Assembly (NCBI GenBank): GCA_030704615.1
Contig: CM060731.1
Coordinates: 28,272,001 to 28,336,000, forward strand
DNA from: Takakia lepidozioides
Taxonomy: Eukaryota > Plantae > Bryophyta
Length of the DNA: 64,000 nucleotides
Direction: 5' to 3'
In this document: positions 3,468 to 63,025 of the stretch, one piece after another
How the letters are laid out: each line of letters starts with the position of its first letter
Numbering within the stretch: the stretch's first letter is position 1
Translations under genes and position numbers: made by a program
Notes under the pieces: generated by a model
The model's database searches: none
What the model saw: only the letters and a program-made list of their open reading frames with translations
Told to the model about the DNA's origin: nothing

Positions 3468-4204
3468 TATAATAACAGATATTGTGGACCCATTTAGCTG
3501 TCGTCAATGACAACTTCCGCAACTAGTCACGTTGAGACATTCTGCTGTTGCGACGATAGAGTTCGAGCCCTGAAGAGTGATGAATACTTTTTGACCAGTT
3601 TGGAACGACGACATTTCTACGAACCTCGCGCGTGTATCCTACAGTAGAGATGCTGGTGATTAATGATTTGGCACTATATCGATGGATACTAAGAAAGAGT
3701 GAAACAATAAGTTACTGAAGTTTGTTTAGGAAAACTGAGGAAGAAGATGAAAAAGAACCTCGCGCGATCGCCCGCGTTTAGGGTTATAATAATTTAGGAA
3801 TTGATAATAGAACTCGGACTCTTGGATTATGTACTAGAATGTAGAATGTAGGTATGTATTGGTCGAAATAAAAATTTGTAGAAAATAAAAGGATTTGCTA
3901 AAGCTACAACCCGAATGTACAACATTGTCTACGACTCCATAACATAAATAGAACTAAATCGATGGAGTGGTTCAGATGGATGAAATGAAGGACGGATGAA
4001 TAATGGTAAACGAGTTTTGGATGACAACAAAGAAAATGGATGAATAAATGAAAACATGGATGAACGAAACAGCTGTAGTGCGAGTGATTATTCGAAGTAC
4101 ATAAAACAGTCGGGTGTGTAGGTAAGATCTTCGCGGACAGTGGATGGGAACAGATGAGCAGAGAGACAGAAGAAAAACCTAGATGAAGTGGAGAGGCTCT
4201 CAAT

Positions 4205-4910
4205 ATTCCGATCCCTCTCCTTGGCAGTCACACTAGCTGCCGTGTCTCCAGTGCGGAGGTAGTCCAACACAACCAAATCCTCATGTATATCTCTGGTACC
4301 ACCTGGCTCATCACTAGCCTCAGGGTCCTCAGACACTTCGTCTACAGTCATCCCTGTTGTAGGTCCAACCTGACCTCCCGATGCCAAGATACACAAAAAG
4401 GCAGATGCATGCCATCCCGACACCATCTCCTCGTCTGTCTCACCATGCCACCGAGCTCCAGTGTCATCTTGCTGGCTCGTGCATGGATTGCGACTCAATC
4501 CATCCGCATCCCTATTGACCAAACCCGGTCAATGCACAACCTAAACATGTCTCTCATGCTCCTCCACCATAGCACGAGAGGCAAAGCAATTCCTGCAAGC
4601 CTCAGGAACCGCCGTATACGTCGTCTCTCTCCTCTAGTGACAATAGGTCCAATGTCAGGCTCCCAATTGCCTTTCGTAACTGCAACCTTAAGTCCAACAG
4701 ACTTAGAGGTAGAGGACGCGTTCCGTGGTTGCTATGCCGCAACCTCTTGAGTAGTACTCCCTGCCTGCTCAGTCAATGACAAGGCTTCATCCTGCCCCAT
4801 CATCTCATCCTTGAGGACCTCCTCAACCCGAGAAGAATCCCCAACCTCATCCATCACAGCCGCCTTGGCTGCCAACTCTCTCTGAACCTCGAGCACCTCC
4901 CACGTGTGCT
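4205..4910 (-). pseudogene. Pol remnant: post-DNMT linker, RT and RNase H stubs, pre-integrase linker
   Basis: A single frame reads RNCFA-SRAMVEEHERHV*VV-H*PGLVNRDADGLSRNP...DIHEDLVVLDYLRTG...KERDR. Confidence 0.75.
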
Positions 4911-5029
4911 ATGGATGTCTACACCCTGTGGTCCTCACCGGCTCGCCCCCACTCACTGCATGTACCGTCTCGGTAGGCAGAGAGACCATAAAGAGAAGTG
5001 TACTACGCACTCTGTGTTGCTCAGCCATA

Positions 5030-5977
5030 GCCAAGCTGATAATCCAGGTCAAGCAATTGAGATCCATTGCTTGTCCCAACACCTGACGACGTGATGCCTC
5101 AGAAAGAGACGACATCGCCGTGGTACCAGTGGTAAAACCCATTGCCCGCTCACGCTCGTCAGCATTAGGTTCCACTAACTGATGCAACTGAGCATCCCAC
5201 AGGAAGCCAGGTCCACTATCCCGGAAAGCATGCGTTCTTGGGAAGCTGAGCAGTATAGGTAATGCTGCTCGTGGTTGACCTACTCTATTGACCACTGCCA
5301 AAGGCAAACGGTCATCGTGTCTCACACGCTGAGACTGCCTTCCTGTATCCAAAATGCTATCCACTATGAGGTGTGCTGGCCGTTGCACCCCATCAAATGC
5401 ACGCTTGAGCAGTGCGGGTGACATCAAGTTAGTCCACCATAGCCGTGGACGATGAGCCCGTGACCCCACTGTAGCTGCATCCAGCAACACTGCTGACCCA
5501 AGCCACGACCGGACTTGATGCACACTGGCTATCATCCTGGCCCGAGAATCGCCCATCAGTGGCACATTCTCCAAGATATATGCTGGAGATACAGCTTGAT
5601 GAAGCTGCAAGTGGCGCAAAACCCGCACCATCTCCCAAAACAGACCCGACCTCGAGTCTCGCAATCCATTGCCATGCCCGCTGATGAATGCCCTGGCAGG
5701 GCCAACCTGCCACTACCAGATCAATGGAGCCAACCCGCTCCAAATCCTGCGCCCCCAACAACAAAATGTCTGCTGGCAACGCCTGCTGATATCCATGAAC
5801 CGCAGACACCGGCAACAACTCAGGGTACTGCTGCACCAACTGAGCAATATGACGGAGTAAGACGTGTCGTGCAGTCTCATCCTTCTCCACATACAAGTAA
5901 CGCCGTACTCGTACACCTGCCTGTAGAACAACAGCCAATCCGGTGCTGATCCCGCCAAACAAGTCCAAAAGGCACAT
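5030..5977 (-). CDS. DNMT3-like C5-cytosine methyltransferase domain embedded in retrotransposon Pol (frameshifted near 5675-5692)
   Basis: Motif I LDLFGGISTG, II YVE, IV IDLVVAGWPCQG, V GLRDSRSGLF, VI YILENV, VIII AHRPRLWWTNL, IX ERERAMGF and X RRQVLGQAM are all present in linear (non-permuted) order. Confidence 0.93.
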
Positions 5978-5995
5978 GCCTTCATCCGGACACGG

Positions 5996-6790
5996 TCACA
6001 CAATCGGTGTGGTGTCTAATGGTGACAACTGAGGTGGTCCTGGTGCAATCCCCGCACTGTCCTCATCTCTTGACGGTACAAAAGCCTCTACCCAGGCTTG
6101 TTGCACACGACAATCAGCAACCCGCTGCAAATCCTTGCTCAAACCCCACAATGGAGTGTGAGCAACCATGGTAGGCAACTCCGCCATACCATACATGTCA
6201 TCCTGCTCTCCCGAAGGTGACACATCCTCTGAATGAGCGTTGCCCTCTAGCAACTCTCCAGGCCCACTCACTGCAGCTATGAATGCTGCCAGTGTTGGCA
6301 TCTTGCCTCGCTGGGCAACCGCAACTCCTCCTATGAATGTCACAGGGATCTGCACACGCCGGCCCTCCCCTGACTGCCATCCAGGCCTATAGGAAGTTGA
6401 CTCCTCCCAAAAATCCAGGGTGAAGCCCATGGGGTACAACATTGCTCCACCAACCAGGACATCGTACGAGACCGCGTCTGTCACAATGGCCTTGGTTCGC
6501 ATCACTGAGCCATCTATAGAGAGATCCGGCCATAGTCTGATAGCCAACTCACGCCGTGTCATGCCCCGAGCCTGCTCCGATCCTCCCAGAGACGTCTGTA
6601 TCTGGAAAAGACAAGGCTCCATATCCGCCTGCGTGAGGCCCAAGCCTGTAATAGCAGCTCTGCCCAGCATCAATGGCTGAGCTCCTGAGTCCAACAAGAC
6701 CCGCAGTGGCCAGTACCTCTTGCCTGCCGGTCCACTCAAACATAAAATGTCATCCTGGTTGTCTAACATGACAACTCCAGGTGTCACCAT
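5996..6790 (-). CDS. Retroviral-type aspartic protease region of Pol
   Basis: RVLLDSGAQPLMLG (D-S-G at ~6683-6691) and YDVLVGG. It is in frame with the DNMT and separated only by one TGA (probably a former TGG) and 6 codons. Confidence 0.85.
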   Translation of the reverse strand: MVTPGVVMLDNQDDILCLSGPAGKRYWPLRVLLDSGAQPLMLGRAAITGLGLTQADMEPCLFQIQTSLGGSEQARGMTRRELAIRLWPDLSIDGSVMRTKAIVTDAVSYDVLVGGAMLYPMGFTLDFWEESTSYRPGWQSGEGRRVQIPVTFIGGVAVAQRGKMPTLAAFIAAVSGPGELLEGNAHSEDVSPSGEQDDMYGMAELPTMVAHTPLWGLSKDLQRVADCRVQQAWVEAFVPSRDEDSAGIAPGPPQLSPLDTTPIV

Positions 6791-6900
6791 GGCTCACTCA
6801 ATGGCTGGCCTAGCTAGCAATTCCATCAACCTGGCAGCTACAGCTTGCCATGGCGCCGTCGTGGCAGTCTTGACCCTCAAATCCGAGGATCCCTCCGGCA

Positions 6901-8904
6901 CTACAACCCTCCCACTATCTCCGCAGAAGATGAAGTAACCTCCCCACTCTCACAAAGTGTAGCTGCCAGCCTGAACACCTCAGCTGGTCTTACCCCCGGC
7001 GTCGCAATCATGGTAGCCGAGAACAATAGAGCTTGACACACAGATGTGGCCGCTCTCAGCAGCACACTAGCTGTTGTAGCCTTGGCAACACTAGGTAGTG
7101 GTGCTACCCGTGTAGCTCTCCCCAATGGCGTAGTAACCTCCGCCTCGGTAACAGTCGGGCGAGAACTAGGTGACATGGATGGCGTCGACACTGTCTCCAC
7201 CAATATGAATGACTGAGGGAGCCTAGCCTGACGGCTTGCCTCCCCACGCTGTGGATCCAACTCCACCTCTGCACTTCGTGGCTCAGGAACTCGTGCTGCT
7301 CCTCGAGTCACGGCTGCAGCAGACTCCACCTGCACTAGTGGTAGTGCTGCTCCGCACATGAATCCCATGCCTCCCATATCTCCTCCCTCAGGAGCAGGAG
7401 GTGGACCATCCAGCCTTGGAGCCGGTATAACCTGAGCTGTAGCCATGGCAGTGAGCCTCTGCTCTAGCTGCTGAAGCCGGTTGGCCATGCCTTGGTCAAC
7501 ACCCTGACCTCCGCGTCCTTGGCCATGTTGAGCTTGCCCTTGGCCTGCACCTCGTGCCTGGCCACCTCGTCCTCTCTGGGCTGCTCCACCTCGCCCCCGG
7601 CCACCATTGTTCCCTTGGAACTGGCCTGGGCGCAACTCAGGATGCAAACCATAACACTGGGCCTCTCCATGCCCGTGCTTGCCACAATGCCCACACTGCA
7701 ACTGTGCAGGCTGTGCATGTGCCGGCCCTTTGCCTCCCTCTGGGCAATCCTTCTAGACATGGGGTCCTCCACATGTCCAGCACACCATATCCGCCCATTG
7801 TTGGCCAGCAAATGATGGGAGAGACCCATGCATCTGAGGTCCTCTCTGCCCTTCCTTGAGCTTCACCTGAGCCCCTTTGTTGCATTGAGCATGTTGAGCC
7901 TTGGTGTCTCCTTAGCACTTGGTGTCTCCTTAGCAAATCCCACCATGACCATTCGTTCTTCTACCATGTTGGGCTCTATCCGCTCTGCCAGCAAAAACAC
8001 ATTTGCTAAGGTGGGTTGGGCCGCTTGTAGGAGAGTTGCATCCCGCACCCTTCTCTCTCAGCTCCTTGTCCAATATCCCATACCAGAATTGGACTGCCTG
8101 AGCTTCCGTAACCCCTTGGGTTACATTTATCAAGCGCCTCATGCAAGTGAAAGCCTCCCTCAAGCTCTCAGTAGGCTTCCGTTGGAACTCTTGCAAGCTC
8201 CGCAACTTCTCTATCCTCACCCCTTGGTAGTTCCCTCTCAACTCTTCGAAGAACTCCACAACAGGGTTGAAGGCAGGCACGGGTAGTAGTGCTGGTGCGG
8301 TAGTGGCTTGGATGGACGTCGTAGCTACTGTACCACCAGTCCCACTAGTCCCACTGCTGCTTGCTGAAGCTGCCGGTGCAGCGGCAGGTGTAGCCACTGC
8401 CCTCGTGGCTCTAGTGCCCCTAGTGATGGAGACATAGTCGGGTGACCAGTACATCCTCCACTCTTCGATCTCAACCTCATGCCCCCACCTGAACTCATGG
8501 TAATCATCCATAGGCGGCCCCTCAAGGTGCTGAAACAGCCCCTTCCATGCCATAAAAGGCGTAAATAGTTGTGGATTACGCATTTGCTACAAATCACACC
8601 AACTATCAAACTCTTGGATAAAATCATCCAACTCGATGGTGCCCACCGCCCTAGAGTACCTTCGTGGCCCCTTGGTAGCTCCATACATCTCCTCCATTGT
8701 GTCCCACAACAATGACAAGAAAACAACTTGCACCGCCGGTATGAGTCCTCTTGATTCACAATCCGAATCAGAACCTTCCGTAGTAGACACAGGACGTAAA
8801 GGTGGCCTAAACCACACACCTCGTCTCGTGTACCCACTAGTATCGCTAGTGCTCGAACCGACACTGTCCCCAGCAACTAGTGGCACCTCCATGTTGACAC
8901 TCAA
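6901..8904 (-). pseudogene. Gag with CCHC zinc knuckle and RGG-rich tail (stops and frameshifts)
   Basis: IELDDFIQEFDSWCDL*QMRNPQLF...LRSLQEFQRKPTESLREAF...AVQFWYGILDKELR; CGHCGKHGHGEAQC (CX2CX4HX4C) at ~7657-7698. Confidence 0.8.
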
Positions 8905-9146
8905 CCGGTCATGAACATGTCCCTAACCCCCTCTCCACAAGGTAACCGGGTAGAGAACCTGTTGCGGCTTATGGTTTGGAATACTAAGCTCCTAACATAG
9001 CCTACACCTGTACCTGCATCCACCGCAAGCACTCCTATGGTTGGCTGGTCATCACCTCTAACCTCACCACAGGAGAAACAATGATGGTCTGGTTGGTCAT
9101 CACCCCAGCCACACCATCGACAGCATGCTCTAGGATTGGCCGGTGA

Positions 9147-9160
9147 TCAAATCCGGACCA
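9147..9160 (-). promoter_or_regulatory. Possible primer-binding site (tRNA-Tyr-like, internally deleted)
   Basis: The - strand reads TGGTCCGGATTTGA, upstream of gag. The complement of the plant tRNA-Tyr 3' end, as I recall it, is TGGTCCGACCTGCCGGATTCGA. Confidence 0.35.
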
Positions 9161-9599
9161 ATCACCTATAAAAACAAGCGCCCACACAAAACTAGCATGG
9201 CGCATAGTCAAGCATGCAGGTATGGAGGGGATCCAAACACAAGAAATCAGAACGACAACTCCCCCACACCAAAAACAACTCCACGGTATTGCTCTTGCAA
9301 GGACACCCCAGCCCAGACCCGGACTGACTCTTGCCTCTACCTACGGAAAGGTCTTGGCCTAATGAGAGGGTGGAAACTACGAGGAAGAGAAGCTAAAGCA
9401 ATGCCTAACCCCAGCATGCCCTCATCCCAACACTCTTCATCTCCTCTCTTCCCTCACTTGCATGACCATGGGAATATCATGAAGATATTCCTCAAACTGC
9501 CCTCCACGAGCTTCAAAATTCGGCCTTCAAGACCACATGTCAGTCCTTAGGCAGTCCACCAGTGCCTCCACGAGTCAGTACAGGCCGTCCACAGGTCAA

Positions 9600-9995
9600 C
9601 ACGGGCCACCACAGACCAGCACAGGCCCACACAGCTCACTGGTCACAGCCATCACAGCCCCACACAGGCCACAGCCTGTCACAGCCCTACACAGGTCACA
9701 GGGTCACAGCCCCACAGGCCGTAGCCTGTCACAGCCCATCACAACCCCAAAGGCCACAGGCACAGCCTGTCACAACCCTACAAAGGTCACAGGGTCATAG
9801 CCCCAAAGGCCACAGCCTGTCACAGCCCCTCACAGCCCCATAGGCCACAGGGCACAGCCTGTCACAGCCCGCCACAGCCCCACAGGCCACAAGGCACACC
9901 CTGTCCCAGCCCCCACAGCGTGTCACAGCCCCTCACAGCCCGTCACAGCCCCACAGGCCACATGGCACAGCCTATCACAGCCCTACACAGGTCAG
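9600..9995. repeat. Degenerate GC-rich tandem repeat, probably within the LTR of the DNMT element
   Basis: Recurrent cacagcctgtcacagccc / cacaggccacagggcacag units. Confidence 0.8.
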
Positions 9996-11899
9996 TGACC
10001 TTGATGCATGGATGAATGAAAGGCAGGATGTTTGTCCCACCGGTTCGCTGAGGACCCCTAAATTTATGTAGGTACAATCAATGATACGACATGACTGTTA
10101 GTAATGAATGGACTCCACTACCATAGTGGGAAGGCTGATCCGGCAGTGAAATGCCGAATATTTATTTTCTTTACAACAAAACACTTCGGCACAACTTAAG
10201 GAAATTTCTAGATTTTACGGCAATGCCACGATGAGATTTTAAGTAATTCGGCGGTGACTCCCTGCATGAACTACTGTACCATTATGTACCAACAGTCAGT
10301 AGCTTAGATGTGTCAGGTTATTTTACCACTAGTGTGAAACTAGCTAGGAAATAGCTAGCTTTTACATATTGACATTTGGGATTGGCCCAAGTGTCAATCC
10401 AGGGGTCAAGGCAGATTTAGGCCCTGGAGTGGTTATCTTCACGGCAGCGCGGGAGACTCATCTTTCTCGAGTTGAGCCTCACCGTGCCTAGCTATGGCGC
10501 CGTAGTGTGGATTCCCCATGGCGTGGGGTGCACTTGGCTTGACTTGTATTTGAGTGATGAGGTTATATATGCATGAGTTTATGCTTCAGATTTGTGAGCT
10601 CGTGCTTGTATTCTTCTTCTTTATCACTCGAGAAAGATGAGCTCGTATTTGTGAGTGCCAGATACGAGTTAGTTGTAGCACTTGTGGTTTTTGCTTGAGA
10701 ATGAGAGAAACCAGGTTGTTATGCAAGGAGCACTGTGGAGCTCTTGGTTGTTAGAAGCGGAGGCGATGTGGCTTACGAGATGGTAGACCTTGGCATTCGA
10801 TCTTCAGCTTCAGAGATGAAAGCACCATGCTGTGGGATTGTAAGACCAAGCGAAAGGGCTGATTTGGCTTGGGGCAAATCAGTGCACTTCGTGGAGTATG
10901 TTGAGATTGGGTTTCAATCTTGAGCTTCAGCATTGAGAGGGCTCTTGTCATGGCAAGAGCAGGGCTGGAACAGGAGCTAAGAGGTGCGGCAAGGCCATGG
11001 AATGTGCACCTAGGGTTTCAGAGCTTGGAAGAAGAGCTCTTGCACCACAAGAGGAGTGTCTTGTGGCTGGAAATGTAAGCCTTAGGGTTTCAGGAGCTTG
11101 GCAAGGGCTGTGGAGTGCTTAGTCTTGTCTTAGAGAGCATCAAGGAGCTAAGGAGCCAAGATAGGGGGCTGATACCTCTTGAGTGAAGAGGTTGCATGTG
11201 TGGAGCATGTATTCAGCTCATTGAAGCTTCCATCTTCAAGCTTTGCATTCATTTGAGACACGCGGAAGCCTTGCTCAATTTTGGACTCAGAGATGAGGTG
11301 CGAGAGAGAGCGACAGAGAGGTGAAAATCAAGGAAGCGAGAGAGTGAGAGATCGAGGGAGCGTGAGTTGGAGTGAGTGTGGGTTTGAGCAATTCGCCGTG
11401 TATGGGGGAGTGTGACAGAGTGAAAGGAGGGCAAAACAAGATAGTACGCTATCCTGCAAGCTGTTGTGCGCACCCGGGCGAGAGAGCTCATCCAGCCTTG
11501 TAGGGACGATCCTTGCCTGAAATGACATCAAGCAGATAAATTTTTTTCGTGTCTTCTTCGTGCATGCAATGAGGGATTTTTCCATGGGCTGCAGAGATTA
11601 CAGGAAAATAGAAGTTGCATGCTTGATTGATTGCTTTTTTGAGTGAATGATAGATTGTTTTGATTGTTTTGATTGCTTATTTTTTTTGGATTGATTCCAG
11701 GGTTACAGAGGTAGGAACGTCGATAGAAGGATTGGGAATTACGGAAGATTTCGGGATATGTACGCTTTCCTTGAGGAACGACTCCGAATTCGAGAAATCA
11801 GGAATTCTGATTTCATAGGGTTCGTAGGTACAGCTGGCAACTGTTTAGGTTTTGCAACCTATGGTGTAGGCCTCAGTATAGGTACCATGACACAGTCCA

Positions 11900-12435: not shown

Positions 12436-14448
12436 ATTTGATACTTGTATTCTTGGGACTAACAACAACACCATTGATACCCAGATGATTAAAAGACACA
12501 TATGAGGACATGTCTGAGTGCATACTCAAAACTGTAAAGTGTTTCGGAAGACATTAGTTCACATTATACAATGTCAACTAAAATCTTTCGGCGCATTTTA
12601 TCAGTCTTGCATGCACACAAAGTATGATAATTCCTGTATGTGGGGGCATAGTCACTCGTGTGATAGGCAGAGATGTTTAGTGTGGACCCAATAGTATACA
12701 ATAGTATCCAAATATCGATCCAAAAGTCCAGGGCAATTTGTAATATTACTTGTCGTCAATATCCATTAGGTTGTTCATCGATTATGTCGTCTACTGTTTC
12801 AGATTAGACAGTGAAGATGTGATGTGAAAGAATCACTATAACAAATTCTGGCTTTTACGATTGTTGTTTAGCAGTTATATCAGCCTCTTATGATTGCATC
12901 ACTGGACAGTGAAATAAACCCAGTCAGTTGTGACATTGTAGTCGTAAATGATATGCAGTCATAAAATGCCAGTCATGCAGCTATCTGTTGACGTGGCACA
13001 TCAGCTGCCTACTCATAGTCATGGGCCACGATTGGGTTTTATGACTATAGTAGTCCATGTCAGCGCCACCAAGGAACTCCAGTCGGGCAACACGTGCCTT
13101 TGCCAGATTTGGACACGTATCATATGGGGAGGGGGGACAACAATGTAGCAGTCATGGTGCTTTTGGGGGTGATGCTTGTTGTTTGGGGAGGGAGAACTGT
13201 TTGCACAATGGGCAGATCGGGGGGTTCAACTCCCCCCAGTACTGGGATCATGATATTCCTGGGGAGCTTTGTATGGGATAAAAGCATGTAGTTGGTAGTT
13301 AGTTTTCAGATACTTGTCAGGTGAAACGCCGAAACAGAGGGCTTCCCCGGGGCCTTCTTAGGGTTTCGCATTTGGGGTCCCCCGACATTCTGTCGTATGT
13401 CGGTGACGTAGCCCATTTTTTGTAGCCAGAAATGTCTACCGGCTCAGCAATACTTGGTCTGAGCTAGGATTGAAGTAGAAATTCACAGAAACAGAAATCA
13501 GTGTTAAAATTTGCTGAAATTCTGAAATTCTTTTTGGAGGTGGTACTTCATCATTCAAGGGAGACTTTCACCACAATAATTGTGATTCCAAGGGAATTTG
13601 GACCCCCTCAGCCTGAATTACATGTCATTTGAGCTTCATGGTGTGCTTTGACCCCCCTGTTTTCCCTTACAAAACAACCTTGTGAAAATTTGGGAATTCT
13701 CCTTTGGAATTTTGCCACAACATGCTTTAGGCCACATAATGGGAATCTGGATGGGGTCTTGTGAGGAATTTTATTTTGTCGATCCAGTTTCCTGGTCAAA
13801 CCATTTTTCCACTGCAAATTTGGAGTGTACCCTAAATTTAGGGCTTGCAAATTTCTTATAATCTTCCAAAATACACGTTGAAATGAGCTGAAATTTTCGC
13901 AGAAGCTGGATGAAGTAGGTAGCCTCCCATTCATATGGTTCATCCCTGTGGATGTTAATTTCGTGAGAGATATACCCTCATCCGTGAGGGTGAGGGTATG
14001 TCCTGTTTTGGAGGGGGGCCCACCAAAAACTGCCTCGTCCATTAGGGGTTAACAGTGTCCAATCCCATATCATGTAGGGCTATGTAGCTCGTTCCAAACC
14101 ACTGTAGATGGAACATGCATAGTCCAGGGATCAAAATCTCATAGTCACAGTGAAAATTCAGGACACTAGCATACCGTATATAAACTGCAAATTTAGCCGT
14201 CCACGGCGAAAAACTGCTTTTCAGGCCGGCATGTCCCAGGGCCGTGAAGAGGTCGTTAGGTAGTTAGTCTTTCCACAGAAAGACTTCTCTCGCCTTCCTT
14301 TTGCATCTCTTCCCACCTTTACCCGTCATACATTTCGAGCATAACCTTTGACTCTCTCTGTCGCTGCAGTCTGCGTCTCTCTCTTGAAAGGAATAGGATC
14401 TATTGATTAGAGAACGAAGAAACTACTCACAAACACAAGGTGGTTGAC

Positions 14449-17400
14449 ATGGGGAGTCGCAAGATTACGATATACGCGACACTGCCACCCGGTGGCAGAA
14501 GCGCCCGCAGATTAACTGCATTTACGACAGAGTTGGCCGAGTTCTCAAAGCCGGCTCATCAACGGACCAGCAATTTTGAACAGCCCGGAGGAAGCATATT
14601 TGGGGAGATTGACCGAGATGTAGACCCAGAAGTCTTAGCGAGGTTGGATCTGACAAGGAGTAGAAAAGAGAGTATGCGTTTGTCAGCTGCTAGAGCAAGT
14701 ATCTTGGCCATGGAGGGTCACCTTCATAATCCATCTATGGAGGAAGAATTCGAACCCGAACCAGAGCCTTTACCAGAGCCAGTAGATATTGTGGAGATAT
14801 TGAAGGAGCGACTGGCAAGATTGCATATGGTATATAAACCGCCGGAGCTAACTGAAGGCCCAGCTGATGTCGTGATCGCTGTCAGAAGCGCTCCCAATAG
14901 TGATTCTAGAGAGTGGGTTAGGGCACACTCTCAGGTTTTGAGGAGATGTTGCAATGGTTTTGAGGAGTTGCTGGAATCTGCCATGCGTCCAATGGACCTG
15001 CGAGAGTATCTCGATAGACAATTCATTCGCACCAGAACATTTGGTTTAGTGCCTGAAAACCCTAAAACTTGCCTTAGTTTTTATGCTATTTTCTCTTCCC
15101 TGAGAGAGCTACTTCCATTAGGGATGAAACAAAATAGACTCCTCTTACAGCTCAAAAGGTCATGATGCCATGAACGTGGAAGAAGTCCACCGAGGAGAGA
15201 GAGAGAGCAGAGCGTGGTGCGCTTATCAAATGCGAGTTCTGATGCAGATGGTTGGAAATGCAGATGACACAAGCTCAAGTGAAAGTCTGGAGACAGATGT
15301 ATCATTGGCATGGTGTAGGATGGGACATCCGAACAAGGAAATACCAGAAACGAGAGTTGTTACTACAGCTTTTCTTGCTTTCCAGGAAGAAAAGAAGAAA
15401 GAGGCAGGGGAAACAATTGGAAAGGAGGAAGGAAAAGAGGAAGAACTACTGTCAGAGGACTTATTGCGAGAAAAGCGTGAGAAGGAGACTGAGGAAATTG
15501 TCAAAGCCAGCCAATCCCTAGTGCAGGACTTGGCAATGCTCGATCTGCCAGAGGAAGTGAAGGAAAGCTATGAGAAATTTGCAGCTATGGTGGCTGAGTG
15601 TGTGCCACAAGCCGGGGAAGAAGGTGAAGGACCAGCTAGTGAAGGTGAAGGCGAGGGCAGGGGGGATGGAGAAACCCAAGGTGTACCTCCACCAGAGAAA
15701 GAACCGCAGCCTTTCGTAAGAACTGTGAGAGTGAGTTTTTCAGACTACGCACCCCCTGGTTGGAAAAAGCCAGATAAGAGAGAGAGTCTTTTGAGACGTC
15801 AAAGCCTTGTGGAAGGGCAGCTAGCGGAAGATAGCCTCGTGAAAGGTACTCTTATAGATGGGAGCATTGTCAGAGCCAGCCTTGCTGAAGGGGGCCTTCA
15901 CGGAGGGAGCCTTGCAGACGGGGATGGGCGCCATTTGGCGAGCATGGGGGCAGAAGGAAAAATAATAAGTGGGAGCCTCATCAGAGGAAGTCTTGCTAAA
16001 GGGAGCCTTGCACGAGGGAGCATTGTCAGACAGAGCCTTTTGGAAGGGAATCTTGTGGGTGATGAGGTAACTCCCGTTCGGTCTTTCAGTAGGAAATAGG
16101 TTCAAGGAAGAGAGTGGGAAAGAGGATGCCAAAATCTTGTCAGCGCCCCCGTCCAGCACTGTTGAAGTCTCAGTTAGAAAGTAATTCTTCATTTCTTTCT
16201 TGCACCTTTGTGCAACGTGTGGAGTTTGTTTTGTTTTTTGGTGATCTCAGTGGTTCGACTGTGTTGTTCCCCTGTGTCCCATGGGTTCCAATGTCGTGCA
16301 GACGTTATGAGTTTTTCTTCTTCTCTCTCTCTCTTTAATTCCCTCCAATGGACATTATGAAGTTGCTTCTCTCTCTCTCTCTCCTAAGGCACCATTCATT
16401 TCATTTCTTTCCGCGGACGGCAAACAACGTCTTATGAGTACAATCTTTCCGCGGACGAAAATCACTACAGTATCCTTGGCAGAACTTCTAGGTCTAACAG
16501 TGAGGGGTCTTCTGCTGAATGGAGGGACACAGTTGGAAAAACTGTTCCTATGATTCAAAACAGCCCTGATGAACTGGAGTATATTTCAATGGCTTATAAC
16601 GCTCCCATTAGTTCTTCTGAGATTGTGGAAGCAATTGAACATTTAAATGGATATAAAGCTGGTGGACCTGATGGTATTGTCAACGAGCTTATCAAGTACG
16701 GTGGCGATCCCATGATAGAGGCCCTAGTTCTCCTTTTTAACCTTATCTGGAAGACTGAAATGATCCCCTTTCGCTGGCGACAGGGGGTCATTGTATAGAT
16801 TGGTGACAGAGAAGAACCGGGGAACTACCGTGGCATCACGCTCCTCAATGCTGTTGGCAAGACATTCTGCAGAGTTATAAGTACTCGTCTCGAGGTTGAT
16901 CTGGAGTCTAGAGGTTGTTTCCATGAAGGCCAAGCTGGCTTTCGGCGAAACAGGGGCTGTGTGGATCATATCTTCACTCTAAGCCAGATTATCCAGGGAA
17001 GGAAAAAGAAGGGAAACCCACTTATGTTTTTTTCCTGGATGTCAAAAAGGCTTATGACACAGTGTGGAGAGATGGCCTATGGTTCCGCCTCTGGTCTTGT
17101 GGGATCAAGGGAAAGATGTGGAGAGTTGTCCACAACTTGTATGCTCACACCAAAAGCTGTGTCACTGTTAACGGACAGAAGTCCAACTTCTTTGACATAG
17201 ACCAAGGTGTAGCTCAAGGATGTACTCTCTCCCCTCTGCTCTTCAATGTTTTTATCAATCTTCTCCTCGAGGATGTGGAAAGTGAGGGATTTGGGTTAAG
17301 GGTGGGTGATACCACCATACCAGCCCTTATGTTTGCGGATGACTTTGCAGGCATAGGGGAGACTCCAACCAATCTCCAGGAGTTGATTGATTGCGCGAAG

Positions 17401-20400
17401 AGATACTTTGATCTTTGGGGGCTAGAGGCTAATGTCAGCAAATGTGCAGTGGTAGCATCAACGACAGAGGAGAGGGAGGAAGTGATCTTAAGTGGCAGTG
17501 GGGTAGCCAAGAGATCCCGGTCCTCCCTTCCTACACTTACCTGGGCGTTGAGTTTTCCTCCAATTGTAATTGGGATGCACATATCCGGAAAGTTGTTCAA
17601 ACTGGCAAGGGCAAAGCTCTGGGGCTCACTAAATTTTTCCACTGCAGAGGGGTCAACTCTGAGGTTAAGAAAACCATGCTTTGCCGCGTTATTAGACCTG
17701 CCTTGGAGTACGGATCTGCTATATGGGTTGATAACTCCAACCAGGCTAAGTCTCTAGATTCCATTCCATTCAGTGGGGGTGCTTAAGGAGTGTATGTCAG
17801 CATGCTCCAAAACAGCCAATGTGGCTGTTTGGGGTGAGTTTGGCATTCCGTCCTTAAGCTCCCGACGAGATGAATTCAAGGTCAGATGGTGGGGTCAGCT
17901 GCAACATATGCCCAACACCAGATATCCTAAGTTAATCGACTCTATATCTTGGAAACAGGACCGCCCTGTCAAACAGGCTAAGTCCTGGCAGAAGAGAGTA
18001 GAAGAGATTCTCAAGGACCTGGACCTGGATCCGCAAGTCTTGACCCTGCTGGATAAATCTGACTTAGAGGCTGTAGTGTCCGAAGCCATGTCTGTTGCCA
18101 TGAGATTGTCTGATGAAAATGAAGTTAGGCAGAAAACTTCCCTGAACTTGTTTCCAGTCAGTGACATGGGGGAGGACATCTTGGATGACCTCGGGTCTAC
18201 CCACTCTCGGCACTAGACTGAAATTTAAACTCAGGGCAGGAAGCCTACCTTTGAACAGCAAACAGAAGCAGAGAGGAAAGGGAGAGTGCAATTGCCCGTT
18301 GTGTGGGCAATCTGAAGACAGTATTCATTTTCTGATACACTGTCCAGGGTTCTCTCACCAAAGAGACGCTCTCTTCAAATCTATCAAGGGAATTGTGCCT
18401 GTACCCCTGTTTACCAACTTTGAAAGTCTCGAGGCTGAGCCGAAAGCCCAGGCCCTCCTGAGGCCTAGTTTTTGGGCAAATCACACACAGCAGATTGATG
18501 CTTGTGTGAAGGGATTTCTAGAGGATATCTGGAAAACCCGGATTAATTCTATATATCAAGGTAAGTCTTACTACCAACGTCAGCCCCTGACAGAGGTAGG
18601 TTCTGTCCCTTTTGTTCCCGCTCAAACTGGGCGCGGGGTCAATGGCCACAAGGCTACGGCAAAGAACGTCTTATGAGTACAATCTTTCCACGGACGTTAT
18701 AAAGCACCATTTCATTTCATTTCTCTTGTCCCATTGGCACTAGAAATTTAAAGTCAGGGCGGGGAGTCTACCTTTGAACAAAAAACAGATGCCCAGAGGA
18801 AAGGGAGATCCCATGCCCCATGTGCCGGCCGACTGAAGACAATATCCATTTTCTGATACAATCTCCGGGGTATTCTCATCAGAGAGCGGCCCTCTTCAGG
18901 TCCATCAAGAACATCGTCCCTGCACCTCTGTTCACCAACTTTCTAAATCTCGATGCTGAGCCTAAAGCCCTGGCCCTGTTGGGTCTAATTGCTGGGCAGC
19001 TCACACACAGCAGATTGAAGTTTGTGTGAAGTGATTTCTAGAGGAAGTCTGGAAATCCCAAACCAATTGTTTATACCAAGGTAAGTCCCACAACTGGAGT
19101 GAGTCCTTCACAAAGGTAGTGTCTGTTCCCTGTTGTTCCGCCAGAACTGGGCATGAGGTCTATGGCCACAAGGCTACGGCGAACAACGTTTCATTCTCTC
19201 ATGCCATAAGCTCTTTGGACTACTTGTAGAGGTTTCTTTCCGAGCTTTCTGCGGACCTTATAAAGTACCATTTCATTTCATGTCATTCCTCTATACTACG
19301 AGATCCACAGGAGATTCCACTGTCTATTCCGGGGAATTCAATCTCTCACTGAAGTCTTCCACTATGAGGATCAGAAATCCTCTCTCATGTTTTTTTCCCA
19401 TTTTGTCCCATAAGCTCTATGAGCTTTCCGCGGACGTTATAAAGTACCATTTCATTTCATTTCATGTCATCTCCCTTACTCCTTAAACAAGTGTGACTTT
19501 TATGGGCTGCACAAAGCCACCTAGGTAACAAACCTGATGCTTTACAAAGAGCTGATATATCTCCTCTGAAACTAGAGATTTTGCTGTTTAAACAGGTGGA
19601 TATACCAGAGCTAGTAGAGATTGATTTTGGTCCAACAAAAGAAGAGCTGGCAAAAGAGAGACAAGAAGATGAAACATATTTTTTTGCTGATTTTCTGTCA
19701 AGGGTAAGCTCAAGCTCAGACGAGAGTGAGCCTGAAGAAATTGTTCTGCCAAAACCTCCAATATACGAACTTGCCAAAGACTGGACAGCTGCAGCCTTGC
19801 ATGCAATTATGGAGTATTTGTATACTGAACAGTGTCATGTGCCATGCCATGAACTCCCACAAGTCTTTCAAGCAGCCAATGAACTTCTTCTCACTGAACT
19901 CACTGATTTGATCACGTTAATTCCCCTGTTGGATTACCTCCGATTGGCTCTCAGGAATGAGGAGAACCGGGCAGCCTTGCTTGAACTGTGTACTCTTGCA
20001 GACTCTGATGAACGCCCAGGTCAGCTGCTTCTTTTTTCTTTTCTCTTCCAATGCCATTCTTCTTGCCATTCTACAATGTAGGTCCTTACTTCAACACTTA
20101 ATCCCAATTGTTGTGGGCTCTGTGTCACTGCTATGGCAATGTTGTCCCATTCTTGTCCCACCACTGGATACAGGTCTTCATGTATCTCTCACGGAAGTCT
20201 TCCATTGAGAGGATCAGAAATGCTTGGCAGCTTATCTGCACAAAGCTTTGACCCTTGGGCAATCCCTGGAGCAGTAGTTGCTTTTGGGCTGCTTCTGGCT
20301 TCACTATGTCTTTTATTCTCTCTTGTTTCTTGCTTTTCTTTTGTCACATAAGCTCTTTGAGCTTTCTGCGGAGGTTATAAGTTCCATTTCAATTCATTTC

Positions 20401-23400
20401 ATTTCTCTGTGCTTTTTTGGCTCTGGTTTTGTTTCCTCTCTCTTGTTTTTTTCTATTTTGTCCAGTAAGCTCTTTGAGCTTTCCGCGGACGTTATAAAGT
20501 ACCATTTCATTTCATTTCTGTGCTCCTCCAGATCTGGGTTGGAGTCTGTGGGCATCCCTATGCAATGATGGCCCAAAAGCCATCTGTCTCTCACACAAGA
20601 TGAGAGACGGATGGCTTAGGTCAACTCAAGATGAGAAGGTTAAGTGGGTTTATATTGGAGGGAACTGGTCGTCAACTAACACGGAGGTTTAAGGGGCCCA
20701 GATCTCAGGACACTAAGGACTCTATGCGAATCATTTGAGTATGGGGAGGACGTTGATCGATTGCCCTACACTTTCACACTGCATACTGGCTACATGGTCG
20801 GTCGTGACGAAGAGTTTGTGGAGGAGGGCATCCACTTGTATCCACGCTTAAAGGTTAGTGGCTAAGATGTGGGGGGGTCAATGATCTTAAGTGGACACAA
20901 GAAAACAAATCGTTCTGTCCCATAAGCTCTGTGGGGTTCATTGAATGGTACAAAGCTCTTCTTTTCTCTCTCATGTTTTCTTCCATTTTGTCCCATAAGC
21001 TCTACAAGCTTTCCGCGGACGTTATGAAGCACCATTTCATTTCATTTAATTTCATTTCATGTCATTTCTCTCTTTCCTGCAATCTCCTTTCGTTTTGTCT
21101 CTCGTTTCTCTCTCGCACGCGCGCGGCAGCACGTCGGCGCTGCGCTCACGGGCGTTGGCGCGCTAGCGCCATCTCCACCACTCCATGACGTCCAAACGCC
21201 AAAGGACGGCTGCCGACGAGGTAGACTACCCGTCTCCCTCACGTCGACTGATTCCCCTCTGCTTCTTCTTCCTGCCCCTGTCTCTCATCAAGCCTCTCCT
21301 TTGCGTCATTACTCCACAAGGAGTGCTGATGTTCAAACGCTTCGGGACCAAATCTCCATCTTACAACGAAATGCATCTCGGAGGAGACTCTGCAGCAAGT
21401 GCTCGCTGCCCGTGACAATGACTCGGAGGAGCGGTTGGCTTCCCTAGACAAAGACTGGGAGACGCGGATGGCTTCCCTTAACAAAAATTGGGAAAAGCAC
21501 ATGGATTCCTTGGACAAAGATTGGCAGAAGCGCATGACAGACAGATACACAGACTTGGAGAACAATATGCGAGTTCAGGATAACTTTTTGCGGGCCTCTC
21601 TTCAGGAGTGCACTAGCAAACTTCAAGGTCTGGCGAAACATCTCAATGACAAATCCACACATACGCGTCTTTCAAAACTTGAAGGCGAAGTGAAGACCTT
21701 CACAGAGAAGAGCCTCCCAGATCCCCTCACAGCAAGCATCCATCTGCAGGTGGAATCCCTTAGCAAAGAGCTGGAAACACACAGAACTGCGACGTCTACA
21801 ATGGCTCGGGAGCTCCAAGCTCACAAGGCAGAGGCCTCCTCCTGGGCTAATATAGTTAAGGGGAGCACATCCAACAACAGTCCTCACTCTCTTGAGGAGA
21901 CAGTTTCGGCTACCTTGCGAGAGGAACAACAACGGGCTTTCAAAGCCCTTAACATCAGGGTCACTGGGAAGCTAGGGGGCCTTGCTAAGGGGGACCTCTT
22001 GACGCTGCCACCAGCCTTATTCAGCAAAACCTTGCTCTCCCACGGGGCGCGAGTGGCATTGAAAGGGCTTGGCGTGCATGATCTTCAGAGCATAAAGTCC
22101 TCTTCATTAGATTCAAGGTCAAGGGCGCTCGGGATAGAGTCCTCAGGCAGAGACCTCAATTGAGAGGTCAGGGTATGTACCTCAACGATGACTTGACCCC
22201 TTTGCAATACAACGCCATGCGGGCGCAACTCTTGCAGGTTAAGCAAGCTCGAGCTCAAGGGCACTATGCCGTGTACCGAGATAGGAGGGTAATTGTCCGG
22301 GAGCACGAACGTCGCCCCTCTAGCTCTAAATAGGGGTTGGGGCACCATGAGACCAACGCATGCTCACATCTACACATTGGCTCATGGAACTGTAATGGCT
22401 CGTTGTGGAGCCACCCTCAAGGGCTTCTAGATATTCTTTCCAAGTGTGATGTTCTTTTTCTTTTGGAAACTCATGCGTATGAAGGAAAGGACCCCCCCTT
22501 TATTCTCGGGTATAGCTTTCAGTCAGTGATTCGTCCACGTACAGGTCTCAAAGGATCTGGAGGTGTGGCTTGTTACATAGCTGACTGGCTTCTCCCACTT
22601 ATCTCCTTCCCATACAAAGACCCACTGGCAAGGTACATTTGGTGTCACATCAAAGGCTACAACATCCTGCTGGCGGGATGTTATTTTGCTCCGGCCGCAT
22701 CTCCGCACAGCGACCTACATATTCGAACAGATTCACCATATGTTCCATTGGAAAACGATATGGCCCGTCTCCGTACCCCACAAACGGACATTTTCTTGGT
22801 TGGAGATTTCAACGCCCGTACAGGATCACTACAGGCCCCCACCTTCGACCACACAGATCCTCTACACATCCAACGCTCGCGTACGGAATTGGAGAGGCAA
22901 AGTGCAGATTCCTCTTGCGAAATCACAAGTTACGGTCACCATCTACTCAAGTTTTGTGAACAGGGGCTATCCATTTACAATGGAACAACCAACTTCAAAT
23001 CCTCCAGCCAGTTCACTTGCCACACGTACAAGGGCCAAAGCGTGGTTAACTATCTCTTGGGGAGCCCCAACAAGCCTGATAGAATAAGCTCCTTTTACAT
23101 CACGAGGTACCCGGATACTGATCACTCTTGTCTTTCCTTTGCATTTCCTTCCATCTCCCTCCCCGTGAGGATCCCCTCTGCGTCTCTTCCCTTACACCCA
23201 CGTATCCACTTTAATACCCATTTCTCTCACTTACACGACGCCGAGTATGAAACATACCTAGCGTCAACCCTCCCTTCCATTCTACATCTATCATCTCCTA
23301 ACGACAAGGCTACACATCTTACTCAAGCCCTTTGGGACTCAGCCCTGCGATCATTTCCCGTCACCTTTCCATCTATCTCCTCACCCTTCTCCACTCGTCG

Positions 23401-26400
23401 TTACGCACCATTTTATGATGAGGAATGCAAGACTGCTAGACGTCGCATCAAATTTTTACTACTTGATACCAATTCTTCTCCAGAGTCCACTAATCTTGCT
23501 CTTAAGCACTATAAGTCCCTCATTAGATCCAAAAAGCAAGCCTACACTATCAAGTTGCAATCTTCTTTCCTTGCTAAAATCAGATTTTCTCCTCGATCTT
23601 TTTGGTCCCTCCTTAAACCTCATAGAGATCCCCCCCAATCACTGACATTCATGTCTGGCATGAGTATGCACAGTCTTTGTACCATTCCCCAACCCAAACT
23701 CCTTCTCCTATAACCTCTAAACCCCTTCACTTCTCTCTCTTTACTACAGCCAATGTCAGTAAGGCAATCAAGAAGCTGCAAAATGGCAGAGCGGTGGACA
23801 TTTCAGGACTTCAGAGTGAATTCATCAAGCATGTTGCACCTACTTTAGCCCCTTTTATAGCTAACCTCTTCAATGAGGTGGTGCAATGGGGCTTTCCAAC
23901 AGAGTGGACAAAGAGCATCATCCACCCACTTTTTAAGAGCGGTGACAGGCTCGCACCGACAAACTATCGTACTATCATGGTGTCCTCATTACTTGCTAAA
24001 CTGTTTGGGGCAGTAGTGGCCATGGAACTGGATGATTGGGCTGAGTACTCTCGCATTCGTGCTGAGGGACAGGCTGGTTTCCGTCGAAACCGATCCACTA
24101 TTGACCACATCTTCACTCTTCAAGTTATGGTGGAAAGTGCACGCTATGACAAAAGAATGGTCTATTTTTGCTTCGTGGACTTTCACAAAGCCTTTGATTC
24201 AGTTCCTCGGGTGAGGATAAAAAATGCTTGGCAGCCTACCTACACGAGGCCTTCACCCTTAGACAATCGCTAGAACATTAATTGTGGTTTCTGGATTTGT
24301 TCCTCTCTCATGTTTTCTTCCATTTTGTCCCATAAGCTCTACGAGCTTTCCGCGGACGTTATAAAGCACCATTTCATTTCATTTCTCTTTGCTCCTTTCT
24401 CAAGAAGAAACAGGAACACCCCACATCAATCCTCATGAAAGACCTTAATAAAGCCAAGAAAAGCTCTCTTTCATCTACTGTTGTCGTGTGATGTTGTTTG
24501 CAGTGGTTTATTGTTGTTCCGCTTTCTCCCATGGGCGCTCGGGGCCCCCTGTGCATGTTATAATGGTTCTGTCAGTCGCTCTCTATCAGTGCCACTGACA
24601 GCATGGGTGTAAGTAATACGTTGCTAATTGCGATGAATTGTCTGATACCACTGGGCCGCAACAATATCCTTACGTGTTCTGACTTTGTCTTCTGTAACAC
24701 CTACACTCGCGACTATAAATGTCATGATAATTGTAATTTTGACCAGCTAAAGTAAGTCTCAATTTTGCACTTGTATTGGTTATGAGGGAGCTCTGGAAGC
24801 CCACAGTAAGATTGACAAGCAACCGAACGTGTTCATGGCCTCTCTCTTCACTCTTTTGTCTTTTGTTCTCTTTCTCGTTTGTTTCATTTCTCTCTCTGGG
24901 CCCCATGCAGACATGATTTCTACTTTTCTTTTTTCTCAGCCTCTACTGTCCTTTGGCTTTCCATTGAGGTAGTAGATTTCTTTTCTCTTCTCTCTGTGTA
25001 CGTGGTCCTGGTTCTAGTCTCAATTAAAGAGAGATCTGTCCATCCCTGTGGGCAGTGCTTAGAGCTGTGGGCTCTTTAAATCGGACAGTTACATTCTTAT
25101 GTCTTTCTCCGCACTTGAGCAGGTAGCCCAGTGGTTGGGTGTCTGTGCCTGCCTGTGCATAACCTGGGTGATCCTGGGTCCAATCCTTCAACATGTGCCT
25201 TCAGACCGTCCATTGGGCCCTCGATGGCCTGTATGTTGAGCAGCAGTAGGCTCTGTAAATTCACTGGACGTTACAGAAACTTTATCTTATCTTCTCTTAT
25301 CCGCTCTCTCTTCATCAGCTGACATTAAGATTTACTTTAGCTGGTCTAAAACACAAATGAATGGACATTGCGTGGCCAATTGGGTGTTTCCAGGAATACA
25401 ACTGAAATCTAGGACTAAGAAGAGCGCTGCAGCCCAGTGGTACTCTGATCGATACCCCCCACTTTCCTTCGCACCCTAGGTAAAGTGGTGGAGAGAAACG
25501 AGTGAGGGAATGTAATCCTCCACTGTTCCTTGCGAGATTGCTTTGATATACAATTAATGGCATGGTCTCTGCACGGTGTGGGTTTCAGCCCCCGTGGTAG
25601 GGATAGAGAAATGAAATGAAATGAAATGGTACTTTGAAGAGAAAATTTTGAAAATGTCCACTGGAAGTCCAAAGAGCTATGGGAGGATGACGAAAAAACT
25701 TGTGATGTCCATTGGAGGTCTGTGGGAAATTTATAATGTCCGCAGAAAGCTCAAAGAGCTTATGGGACAAAAGGAAAGCAAGAAACAAGAAAGGATAAAA
25801 GACAGAGCGAAGCCAGAAGCAGCCCAAAAGCATCTGAAAGAATCAAAGAAAGAAAGATGTGGAATAATGAAATGAAATGAAATGGTGCTTTATAATGACG
25901 GTCCACGGAAAGGTCATAGAGCTTATGGGACAAAAGGGAAGAAAACATGAGAGAGGAAACAAAACCAGAGCAAGAATAAAAACTATTGCTCGAGTGGAAA
26001 GAAAATAGTGAAAATAGAAAGGAAATTGAACGACACTTTATATGGTCCATGGAAAGTTCAAAGAGCTTTTGTTTTTGTTTCTTATGGGAAGAAAGAAAAA
26101 CCAACAAACTTGTTACGACCGCGAGAGGCTGAGGTATGGAGAGGAAGATACAGAAACTCTAAGATGTTCACAGGGGCCCCGAGGGCCTGTCTGGATCAAA
26201 CTTTCTTGGCTTGCCAACGTTGTAGTTTCCCTTTTCCTCGCCAACAAAATAGAAAGGAGAAAGAGGGTGCTGTGTAACTAACAAAGCAAGAATCAACTTA
26301 TGAGACAGATGGCAATGTAAGTCTCTGATGGAGAGCTTCATCAAGCACTTCGTCTCTGCTTGACTGCTGATGTTAAACCTGGTAGAGATGAGAACGAGGC

Positions 26401-51949: not shown

Positions 51950-52302
51950 CCCAGCCATCCGGGAAAGTGAAGGGAGATTGTTTAGAGTCACTGCTTTGGA
52001 AGGTACCTCCCAGCCCGTCCTTTGAAGAATGGAAGGATATAGTTGGAAAAACTGTTCCTATGATTCAAAACAACCCTGATGAATTGGAGTATAATTCAAA
52101 GGCTTACAACGCTCCCATTAGTTCTCATGAGATTGTAGAAGCAATTGAACATTTAAACGGATATAAAGCTGGTGGTCCTGATGGCATTGTCAACGAGCTT
52201 ATCAAGCCCAGGGTGGAGAGGTGGTCTATGGCTCCACCTCTGGTCATGTGGGATCAAGGGAAAGATGTGGAGAGTTGTCCATAACTTGTATGCTTACACC
52301 AA
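51950..52302 (+). mobile_element. LINE-A fragment inserted between RNase H and integrase of the gypsy element
   Basis: MIQNNPDELEYNSKAYNAPISSHEIVEAIEHLNGYKAGGPDGIVNELIK is nearly identical to 16550-16697. Confidence 0.85.
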
Positions 52303-53714: not shown

Positions 53715-53925
53715 TTCTGGATTAGCAATCAGTAATCTGACCTCTCCCTTGAATCCCCTGTCTAAAACCCCAGAAGCAACCAGACAGTGTTTTTGGAGGG
53801 TAAGTTTTTTCCAGCCTTCAACTTCAAGGAAATGACCGATATGGCAAGCAAAAGCTAAGCCTGTAGGTACTATGCGCTGAGAAAAAGCAGGCATGTTGAA
53901 GTCAACTGGAGAACGTAGCAACAGG
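53715..53925 (-). CDS. dUTPase-like domain between protease and RT
   Basis: LRSPVDFNMPAFSQRIVPTGLAFACHIGHFLEVEGWKKLTLQKHCLVASGVLDRGFKGEVRLLIAN. VPTGL and a motif-3-like GVLDxxFxGEV are recognisable. Confidence 0.72.
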
Positions 53926-61613: not shown

Positions 61614-61654
61614 GATGAGGCCAATCCCAAGGACGATCGCGTACTGAACTCTAA

Positions 61655-61666
61655 GCTCTGATACCA
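61655..61666 (-). promoter_or_regulatory. PBS (tRNA-iMet)
   Basis: TGGTATCAGAGC on the - strand, 2 nt after the LTR end ...CGACA. Confidence 0.92.
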
Positions 61667-61668
61667 AG

Positions 61669-63023: not shown

Positions 63024-63025
63024 CT

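Follow-up and report, generated by a model that had tools for sequence, protein, structure and literature searches.

A conserved stop codon behind the DNMT3-like methyltransferase domain of a land-plant Gypsy retrotransposon family

What does a retrotransposon do with a cytosine methyltransferase of its own, and how much of it does the element make? We addressed these questions at a locus of the bryophyte Takakia lepidozioides, a stretch of 64,000 nucleotides (contig CM060731.1 of assembly GCA_030704615.1, positions 28,272,001 to 28,336,000; hereafter the window). Six-frame translation of its minus strand reveals a dead Ty3/Gypsy copy with Gag, a protease and a DNMT3-like C5-methyltransferase (Table 1). 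In relatives of this copy, the three form a first open reading frame (ORF1) that ends at a conserved stop codon, and reverse transcriptase (RT), RNase H, integrase and a PHD finger follow in frame. The role of retrotransposon-borne cytosine methyltransferases is an open question (PMC5890265, discussion) that has so far been tied to algae with few genetic tools. Because close relatives of the present element stand unrecognized in Marchantia gene models (Mp4g09160, Mp8g17980 and Mp6g11220), this question becomes testable in a model plant.

A methyltransferase domain shared by a retrotransposon family

Downstream of the protease motif LLDSGA on the minus strand, the motifs LDLFGG, YVEKD, GWPCQ, ENV, RPRLWW, ERERAMGF and LGQAM follow in linear order, as a preliminary description of this DNA had reported. 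The window domain thus carries C5-methyltransferase motifs I, II, IV, VI, VIII, IX and X in order, with the catalytic Cys codon (in GWPCQ) at 5698-5696. The same description had put all motifs in the frame of the protease. This holds for motifs I to IV, which lie behind a TGA at 5998-5996, but not for motifs VI to X, which are moved to another frame by a break at about 5693/5679, directly behind the catalytic PCQG. The frameshifted window piece matched the PF00145 profile at 19 bits (E 0.001), under the curated cut-off of 22 bits, and the match was also weak in full-frame Pfam scans of the window with stops read as X; unbroken relatives pass at 35–43 bits (P0005, E 9e-9; P0006, E 1e-8; P numbers denote relative proteins and L numbers loci from JGI metagenomes). 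The window protease is likewise under the curated cut-off (PF13650, E 0.002), and its ORF is 38% identical (E 2e-41) to P0025, which passes.

In a profile ranking among solved structures, DNMT3A came first (E 2e-19) and DNMT3B next, with DRM2 at 4e-8 and HhaI at 1e-5. A structure model of the unbroken relative P0008 (pLDDT 84) gave DNMT3A as the best fold match (Foldseek E 2.5e-19, TM 0.81 over the target, 21% identity), and the motifs AHRxRxxWxNL and ERxxGF are common to the domain and DNMT3A/3B. A DRM identity was ruled out by the linear motif order, since DRM enzymes are permuted, with motifs VI–X before I–V. Judged by these rankings, the domain resembles DNMT3 more than it does DRM or bacterial enzymes, in agreement with its earlier assignment. 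The catalytic domain of mammalian DNMT3A/3B is thus the best match in both sequence and fold, at about 21% identity. Unlike these enzymes, the element domain has neither PWWP nor ADD and is longer between motifs VIII and IX, so that its target sequence context cannot be read off from them.

A search with a 245-residue C-terminal piece of the domain returned 53 longer relatives, and 986 representatives at E <= 0.001. Relatives from Marchantia and Calypogeia are 67–71% identical to the query (Marchantia polymorpha up to 69% over most of its length, Calypogeia fissa 70%), and others occur in Sphagnum fallax and S. troendelagicum, which bears out the suspected occurrence in land plants. In JGI metagenomes, 140 stretches were confirmed, and all locus counts given here rest on the best 80 of these 140; a pattern search in viral contigs gave 78 pattern matches, of which 0 were confirmed. 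The order Gag-protease-DNMT-RT-RNase H-integrase-PHD is complete in 10 of the 80 loci, and most of the others hold parts of it in the same order. RT, RNase H, integrase and PHD finger are supported by Pfam in relatives. About 75 of the loci belong to one Sphagnum-type family, and L002 is identical to an S. fallax model over 141 integrase residues. The fusion of Gag, protease and DNMT is a family trait, found in liverworts and mosses. As proposed earlier, the methyltransferase is therefore a polyprotein domain and not a bystander gene; its position between protease and RT holds for the family, whereas the window copy has lost its RT.

The domain also bears marks of constraint. The catalytic Cys is retained in 71 of 72 covering sequences, the motif I Gly in 63 of 63 and the motif VI Glu in 67 of 74, with more decay at the Arg and Gln sites. 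Between families, pS of the methyltransferase is near saturation (0.67–0.81) and pN is 0.20–0.27, on par with Gag and protease. The dN/dS comparison that had been suggested gave 0.09–0.17 in the three of seven between-family pairs that were computable, the other four being saturated. By these substitution patterns, the methyltransferase domain is under purifying selection.

These data also bear on the possibility that the domain is a host DNMT3 pseudogene or a chance insertion in a single decayed element, with all stops due to decay. The window copy, heavily broken and under the Pfam cut-off, would suit such an origin. However, the same order recurs in relatives that belong to three named genera and over the set of 80 loci, depth in run X1 is uniformly high over the whole element including the methyltransferase, and the domain is under purifying selection. 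A junction unique to this locus and a processed host DNMT3 pseudogene had both been named beforehand as outcomes that would count against a retrotransposon family; the fusion is common to the relatives, and across the retrieved loci the domain is intron-free between protease and RT. The occurrence of the fusion in named genera and in JGI loci refutes this origin, which we regard as extremely improbable.

The stop codon between methyltransferase and reverse transcriptase

The domain had been described as part of a frame that continues past a single stop into the pre-RT linker. In the window, two stops follow motif X, at 4911-4909 and 4734-4732. The junction at the second reads TAG-CAA-CCA, an exact fit to UAG-CAR-YYA, the TMV-type (tobacco mosaic virus, type I) readthrough signal (PMC4132726, PMC3159437, PMC2194720). 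We compared this junction among 81 sequences (the 80 loci and the window), of which 64 had a pre-RT anchor; 17 that were too short, interrupted or unmatched were dropped. An in-frame stop was present at the matching codon in 61 of the 64 anchored sequences. When only distinct junctions were counted (n = 60), 57 had a stop (40 TAG, 17 TAA), and the remaining three (two TAC, one GAG) are each one base from TAG. CAA-CY comes next after this position in 58 of the 60, as compared with CARYY behind 11 of 862 other premature stops in the aligned coding stretches.

The TAG-CAA-CC context is kept in four families, the methyltransferases of which are 57–69% identical to that of the window. The exact CAR-YYA context occurs in the window, L008, L066 and L048, and the Sphagnum-type family has CAA-CCC (5 of 6 positions). 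The distance of the stop behind motif X varies, being 115 codons in the window, 100 in the Sphagnum-type family, 114 in L008 and L066, and 148 in L048, which has two earlier stops and whose contig ends before RT. Likewise, the linker from motif X to the pre-RT motif WEP measures 117, 131 or 138 codons, and the stop is nonetheless in frame with RT. In L008, a single frame spans 2064 codons from Gag to integrase and is interrupted by just two stops, of which the junction stop is one. The protein relatives are consistent with these positions: P0004 and P0005 from Marchantia and P0006 from Calypogeia end 98–100 residues after motif X (94–100 when JGI protein P0013 is included), and P0017 ends where L048 stops. 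Because a stop occupies the same place in 57 of 60 distinct junctions and in four families, the one at 4734-4732 is not a product of decay. The methyltransferase therefore closes the Gag-protease ORF instead of running openly into RT: ORF1 encodes Gag, protease and methyltransferase and ends at the conserved stop, and RT, RNase H, integrase and PHD finger come next, in frame.

Folding placed a stem 3' of the stop in six of six folds (z -0.7 to -2.6; window z -2.5), and long-range pairing behind the stop was 0.83, compared with 0.03–0.45 in 11 control windows. The mean z of the stem (-1.29) was not the lowest, which was -1.60 at offset -115. No covariation was found for the stem in a hand-set register (178 of 500 shuffles scored as high), and two-sided changes were absent from the outer stem of the RNAalifold consensus. 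We therefore treat the predicted stem behind the stop as a weakly supported lead.

Expression and possible action of the enzyme

The best overall explanation, to which we assign a probability of about 0.55, is that the window holds a dead, RT-deleted copy of an element whose ORF1 encodes Gag, protease and methyltransferase, and in which low-frequency readthrough would give RT, RNase H, integrase and PHD finger, so that production of the enzyme would be on a scale like that of Gag and its probable substrate would be new cDNA within the particle. According to this explanation, ribosomes would pass the stop at a few percent, as at the murine leukaemia virus (MuLV) and TMV-type sites, readthrough of the MuLV stop being 5% (PMC2194720). 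Readthrough of the conserved stop is, from its context, quite likely. If it occurs only at low frequency, the methyltransferase would be made in bulk: with the protease it would accumulate in amounts like those of Gag, and RT and integrase would be scarce.

Retroelement domains fused to Gag are packaged and then released by the protease. The methyltransferase would accordingly be packaged with Gag and freed by the protease, which would put many enzyme molecules beside the new cDNA; we consider these steps reasonably probable, although less so than the readthrough itself. Whether the packaged enzyme would then methylate the element's new cDNA inside the particle is an evenly balanced matter. 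A copy methylated in advance would enter a methylated genome resembling host heterochromatin, or would arrive already damped. The idea that such an element methylates its own cDNA is that of de Mendoza et al. (PMC5890265, section 11).

Several points weigh against this explanation. About 75 of the 80 loci belong to the Sphagnum-type family, and because copies from the same family cannot count as separate evidence, the number of independent cases is four, one per family; in one of these families (L048) the frame into RT lies beyond the contig end. The Sphagnum-type context CAA-CCC is one base off the consensus and is followed by an ATG, and 16 of the 56 distinct junctions of this family have TAA. 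For Marchantia and Calypogeia, the evidence for the stop consists of protein ends, not of DNA behind the stop. Within the Sphagnum-type family, dN/dS of the methyltransferase (0.47) exceeds that of Gag (0.36) and of RT with RNase H (0.39), with the protease at 0.62, all four values being inflated by post-insertion decay. The likelihood that RT and integrase are produced by readthrough derives from sequence, and for a similar-looking stop in Tca2 the local context did not bring about readthrough in yeast (PMC2194720).

This Tca2 precedent also suits an alternative in which the stop is conserved and RT, RNase H, integrase and PHD finger are made by splicing, an internal promoter or re-initiation, with the methyltransferase still ending ORF1. 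A pyrimidine tract ending in AG, a possible splice acceptor, lies 28–30 nt behind the stop in three families, but the codon phase of the AG differs among them (+28, +29 and +30). Re-initiation could use an ATG three codons past the stop, which 55 of 56 Sphagnum-type junctions contain but which is absent from the window, L008 and L048. Automatic gene models of Marchantia and Sphagnum do splice over the junction (P0007, P0011, P0012 and P0034), but they pick differing junctions, as predictors do to dodge a stop. Neither the frame shared by stop and RT despite the three linker lengths nor the retained CAA-CC is what such a bypass would call for, and we consider it unlikely.

It is also conceivable, and only slightly less improbable than a bypass, that readthrough takes place and the enzyme acts outside the particle, methylating integrated copies or host DNA (self-damping or silencing of rivals) or merely binding DNA or S-adenosylmethionine. 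Bulk expression with Gag would fit a nuclear or structural role equally well. The domain of the Klebsormidium element produced no methylation in yeast, a result that its authors call inconclusive (PMC5890265, section 10) and that also counts against methylation of cDNA, and the same authors list a host benefit, slowed transposition, as an option (PMC5890265, sections 10 and 11). On the other side, conservation extends to the catalytic PC, ENV and motif I residues, for which a domain that only binds would have no use, and distant relatives (99 of 282 proteins) carry the domain between RNase H and integrase, where it keeps its link to the cDNA machinery. We retain readthrough followed by methylation of cDNA in the particle as the preferred explanation.

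The closest described system is KnitGypsy-Dnmt3 of Klebsormidium nitens (PMC5890265), which shares with the present family the Gypsy domains, an unpermuted, intron-free Dnmt3-like domain and purifying selection; the likeness described here is one of features, and no named Klebsormidium protein was among the matches of our domain searches. According to the review file of that paper, its DNMT lies in one ORF with RT and RNase H, whereas here a conserved in-frame stop stands between them, and the relatives come from named land plants. EpiLTRs/DAM-LTRs (bioRxiv 10.64898/2026.05.21.726589) are likewise Gypsy elements that encode their own DNA methyltransferases; the sister of their DNMT is DNMT4, DAM and a chromodomain accompany it, and their authors separate them from streptophyte Gypsy-DNMT3 elements. 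Both this preprint and PMC12344493 use the word 'streptophytes' for Gypsy-DNMT3 elements. In the literature texts we found no report of land-plant members or of the conserved stop, and members may stand in figures or supplements beyond these texts. The available text of a plant long terminal repeat (LTR) element classification (PMC6317226) mentions neither methyltransferase nor PHD, Marchantia or Sphagnum.

As to the stop itself, the TMV replicase signal resembles the junction known here by its sequence, with an amber stop followed by CAA-CCA and a polymerase in the downstream frame. In MuLV and Tca2 a stop lies between gag and pol, and in SIRE1 between pol and env (PMC2194720). Here, unlike in these elements, it lies behind protease and methyltransferase, which would put both on the abundant side. 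What appears to be new is a land-plant branch of Dnmt3-bearing Gypsy elements whose conserved stop, probably leaky, places the methyltransferase on the Gag side. The stop adds a statement on dosage, as the element appears to be selected to produce methyltransferase in large excess over RT and integrase. A further consequence is that gene models splice falsely over the junction, and bryophyte methylation studies may have an element-borne de novo enzyme as a confounder.

Wider distribution, element ends and the remainder of the window

In a quick domain tree (95 of 241 rows after identity thinning, SH-aLRT support only, careful search unfinished, host DNMT3 and DRM rows not included), the window falls within a 17-row clade (support 99) with Marchantia, Calypogeia and all four stop-bearing families. 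Outside it are the metagenomic proteins P0039, P0074, P0230 and P0238, in which the DNMT continues into RT with no stop, and a Closterium gene model. Sister-clade ORFs (P0026, P0030, P0036, P0060 and P0231-P0236) are 1300–1800 residues long and end about 90–160 residues behind the methyltransferase; judged by these ends, they may carry a stop or frameshift at the matching place.

Two positions of the domain were found among 282 stored domain-bearing proteins: behind RNase H, and before integrase where integrase is present, in 99, and before RT or RNase H in 26. The RNase H-integrase position occurs in green-algal PHD-finger Gypsy polyproteins (P0086 from Scenedesmus, P0262 from Monoraphidium and about 100 unnamed), and P0123 from Cymbomonas probably has the same order. 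We found no mention of this position of a DNMT3-like domain in the available texts of the related literature; a Chlamydomonas Gypsy carrying a PHD finger has been described (PMC11982613, bioRxiv 10.1101/2022.06.16.496473). A wider scenario, which we put forward tentatively and hold to be somewhat doubtful, is an old, green-plant-wide clade of PHD-finger Gypsy elements with an active DNMT3-like enzyme at two places of the polyprotein; chlorophyte elements would have it between RNase H and integrase, and streptophyte elements between protease and RT. In land plants, a leaky stop would have been added behind it; as a bulk component of the particle, the enzyme would then methylate each new cDNA ahead of integration, and perhaps also DNA of the host, in mosses and in liverworts such as Marchantia.

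The ends of the element were examined in relatives; paired LTRs and target duplications had been proposed as a check. L037, L069 and L079 have split direct repeats in the arrangement A1 (about 310–345 bp)-coding-B1 (about 115 bp)-A2-B2, with B1 and A2 linked by two bases, in place of two identical flanking LTRs. The expected target duplications were present: the ends read TG..CA, and of five relatives with both outer ends, four (L022, L035, L069 and L079) have exact 4-bp duplications and L037 has one mismatch. These ends and duplications point to integrase-mediated insertion. The split repeats match the DIRS-like split repeats of KnitGypsy-Dnmt3 (PMC5890265, legend of Fig. 4c). Ty3/Gypsy order (protease-RT-RNase H-integrase) is present in relatives, the window copy having neither RT nor integrase. 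Membership in the Phygy clade was rejected, as the NCGN target preference given in the available text of PMC6317226 is not matched by TACA, TGTG, TCTC and CATA, which are among the duplicated sequences. In the split-repeat ends (L037:12198-12740, L069:10378-10971 and L079:12201-12769) the B1-A2 joint resembles a built-in circle junction, and some relatives' copies finish in a single B.

Table 1. Parts of the Gypsy copy, in window coordinates
Feature	Position	Strand	Basis
5' non-coding part with CACAGCC-type tandem array (about 9560-9990)	8698..10050	-	Run X1 depth
Gag region: start ATG 8697-8695, capsid-like part, two Cys/His knuckles, low-complexity linker	6907..8697	-	tblastn with slices of Marchantia P0005
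Aspartic protease, LLDSGA, Asp at 6691-6689	6386..6739	-	tblastn; PF13650 E 0.002
DNMT3-like C5 cytosine methyltransferase, motifs I-X linear; preceded by TGA 5998-5996	5020..5992	-	Motifs, PDB ranking, P0008 model
C-terminal tail of ORF1; stop 4911-4909 where most relatives have Trp (decay)	4735..5019	-	Comparison with relatives
Conserved in-frame stop TAG-CAA-CCA in TMV-type readthrough context; stop codon 4734-4732	4726..4734	-	Junction comparison
Predicted long-range stem 3' of stop, weakly supported; pyrimidine arm ~4721-4704, purine arm ~4640-4620	4620..4721	-	Folding
Pre-RT segment WEPDIG...RRFLR, in frame with stop, 23 codons behind it	4600..4665	-	Comparison with relatives
Deletion junction, RT and most of RNase H gone (~1.25 kb)	4540..4600	-	L008 comparison; loose ends at 4542
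RNase H end and linker before integrase; element cut at about 4205	4205..4540	-	L008 comparison; depth drop

The window copy is degraded in several ways. Its Gag, opened by the ATG listed in Table 1, is interrupted by stops and matches PF03732 weakly (E 0.015). Stops besides the conserved one stand at 6796-6794, 5998-5996 (TGA) and 4911-4909, and frameshifts near 8056, 6906, 5693/5679 and 4599. Many other run-contig copies are free of these frameshifts, and the two in the Gag region (near 8056 and 6906) are seen as indels against other copies. The deletion of RT and most of RNase H leaves 60 nt from the pre-RT segment to the RNase H end, compared with 1309 nt in L008, and loose contig ends at 4542 (runs X5 and X7) extend into RNase H sequence. 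A short filler at 4543-4585 holds an inverted repeat.

The copy stops short of integrase, and at position 4202 the depth in run X1 drops from roughly 914,000 to roughly 4,300. In this run, 78,939 contigs lie on the stretch; depth is 0.45–1.26 million from 4202 to 10051 and 3–4 thousand in the flank below 4202. Although this depth does not equal copy number, its profile shows an abundant repeat, methyltransferase included. Depth stays high up to the bin ending at 10051; the left end has no match to the non-coding DNA of relatives, and a candidate TG start lies at 10091. The CACAGCC-type array is highly variable between run X1 copies.

Elsewhere in the window, BTB-like ORF pieces at 14407-15162 and 19497-20078 (plus strand) flank a long interspersed nuclear element (LINE); a search for relatives found none, and the ORF is possibly a lineage-specific host gene. 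A second ORF searched in the same way yielded weak Atlas leads. Two decayed LINEs lie at 16400-18700 and 22334-24270 (plus strand), and the first has further pieces at 33257-35645 and 52017-52305. On the minus strand, a decayed Gypsy at 50280-55560 has a dUTPase-like stretch (PF00692, E 0.003) between protease and RT, and a chromovirus-type Gypsy with a chromodomain occupies 57050-61756. An inverted partial copy of this chromovirus (1065 nt, 91%) at 62936-64000 on the plus strand forms with it a large palindrome around 62350.

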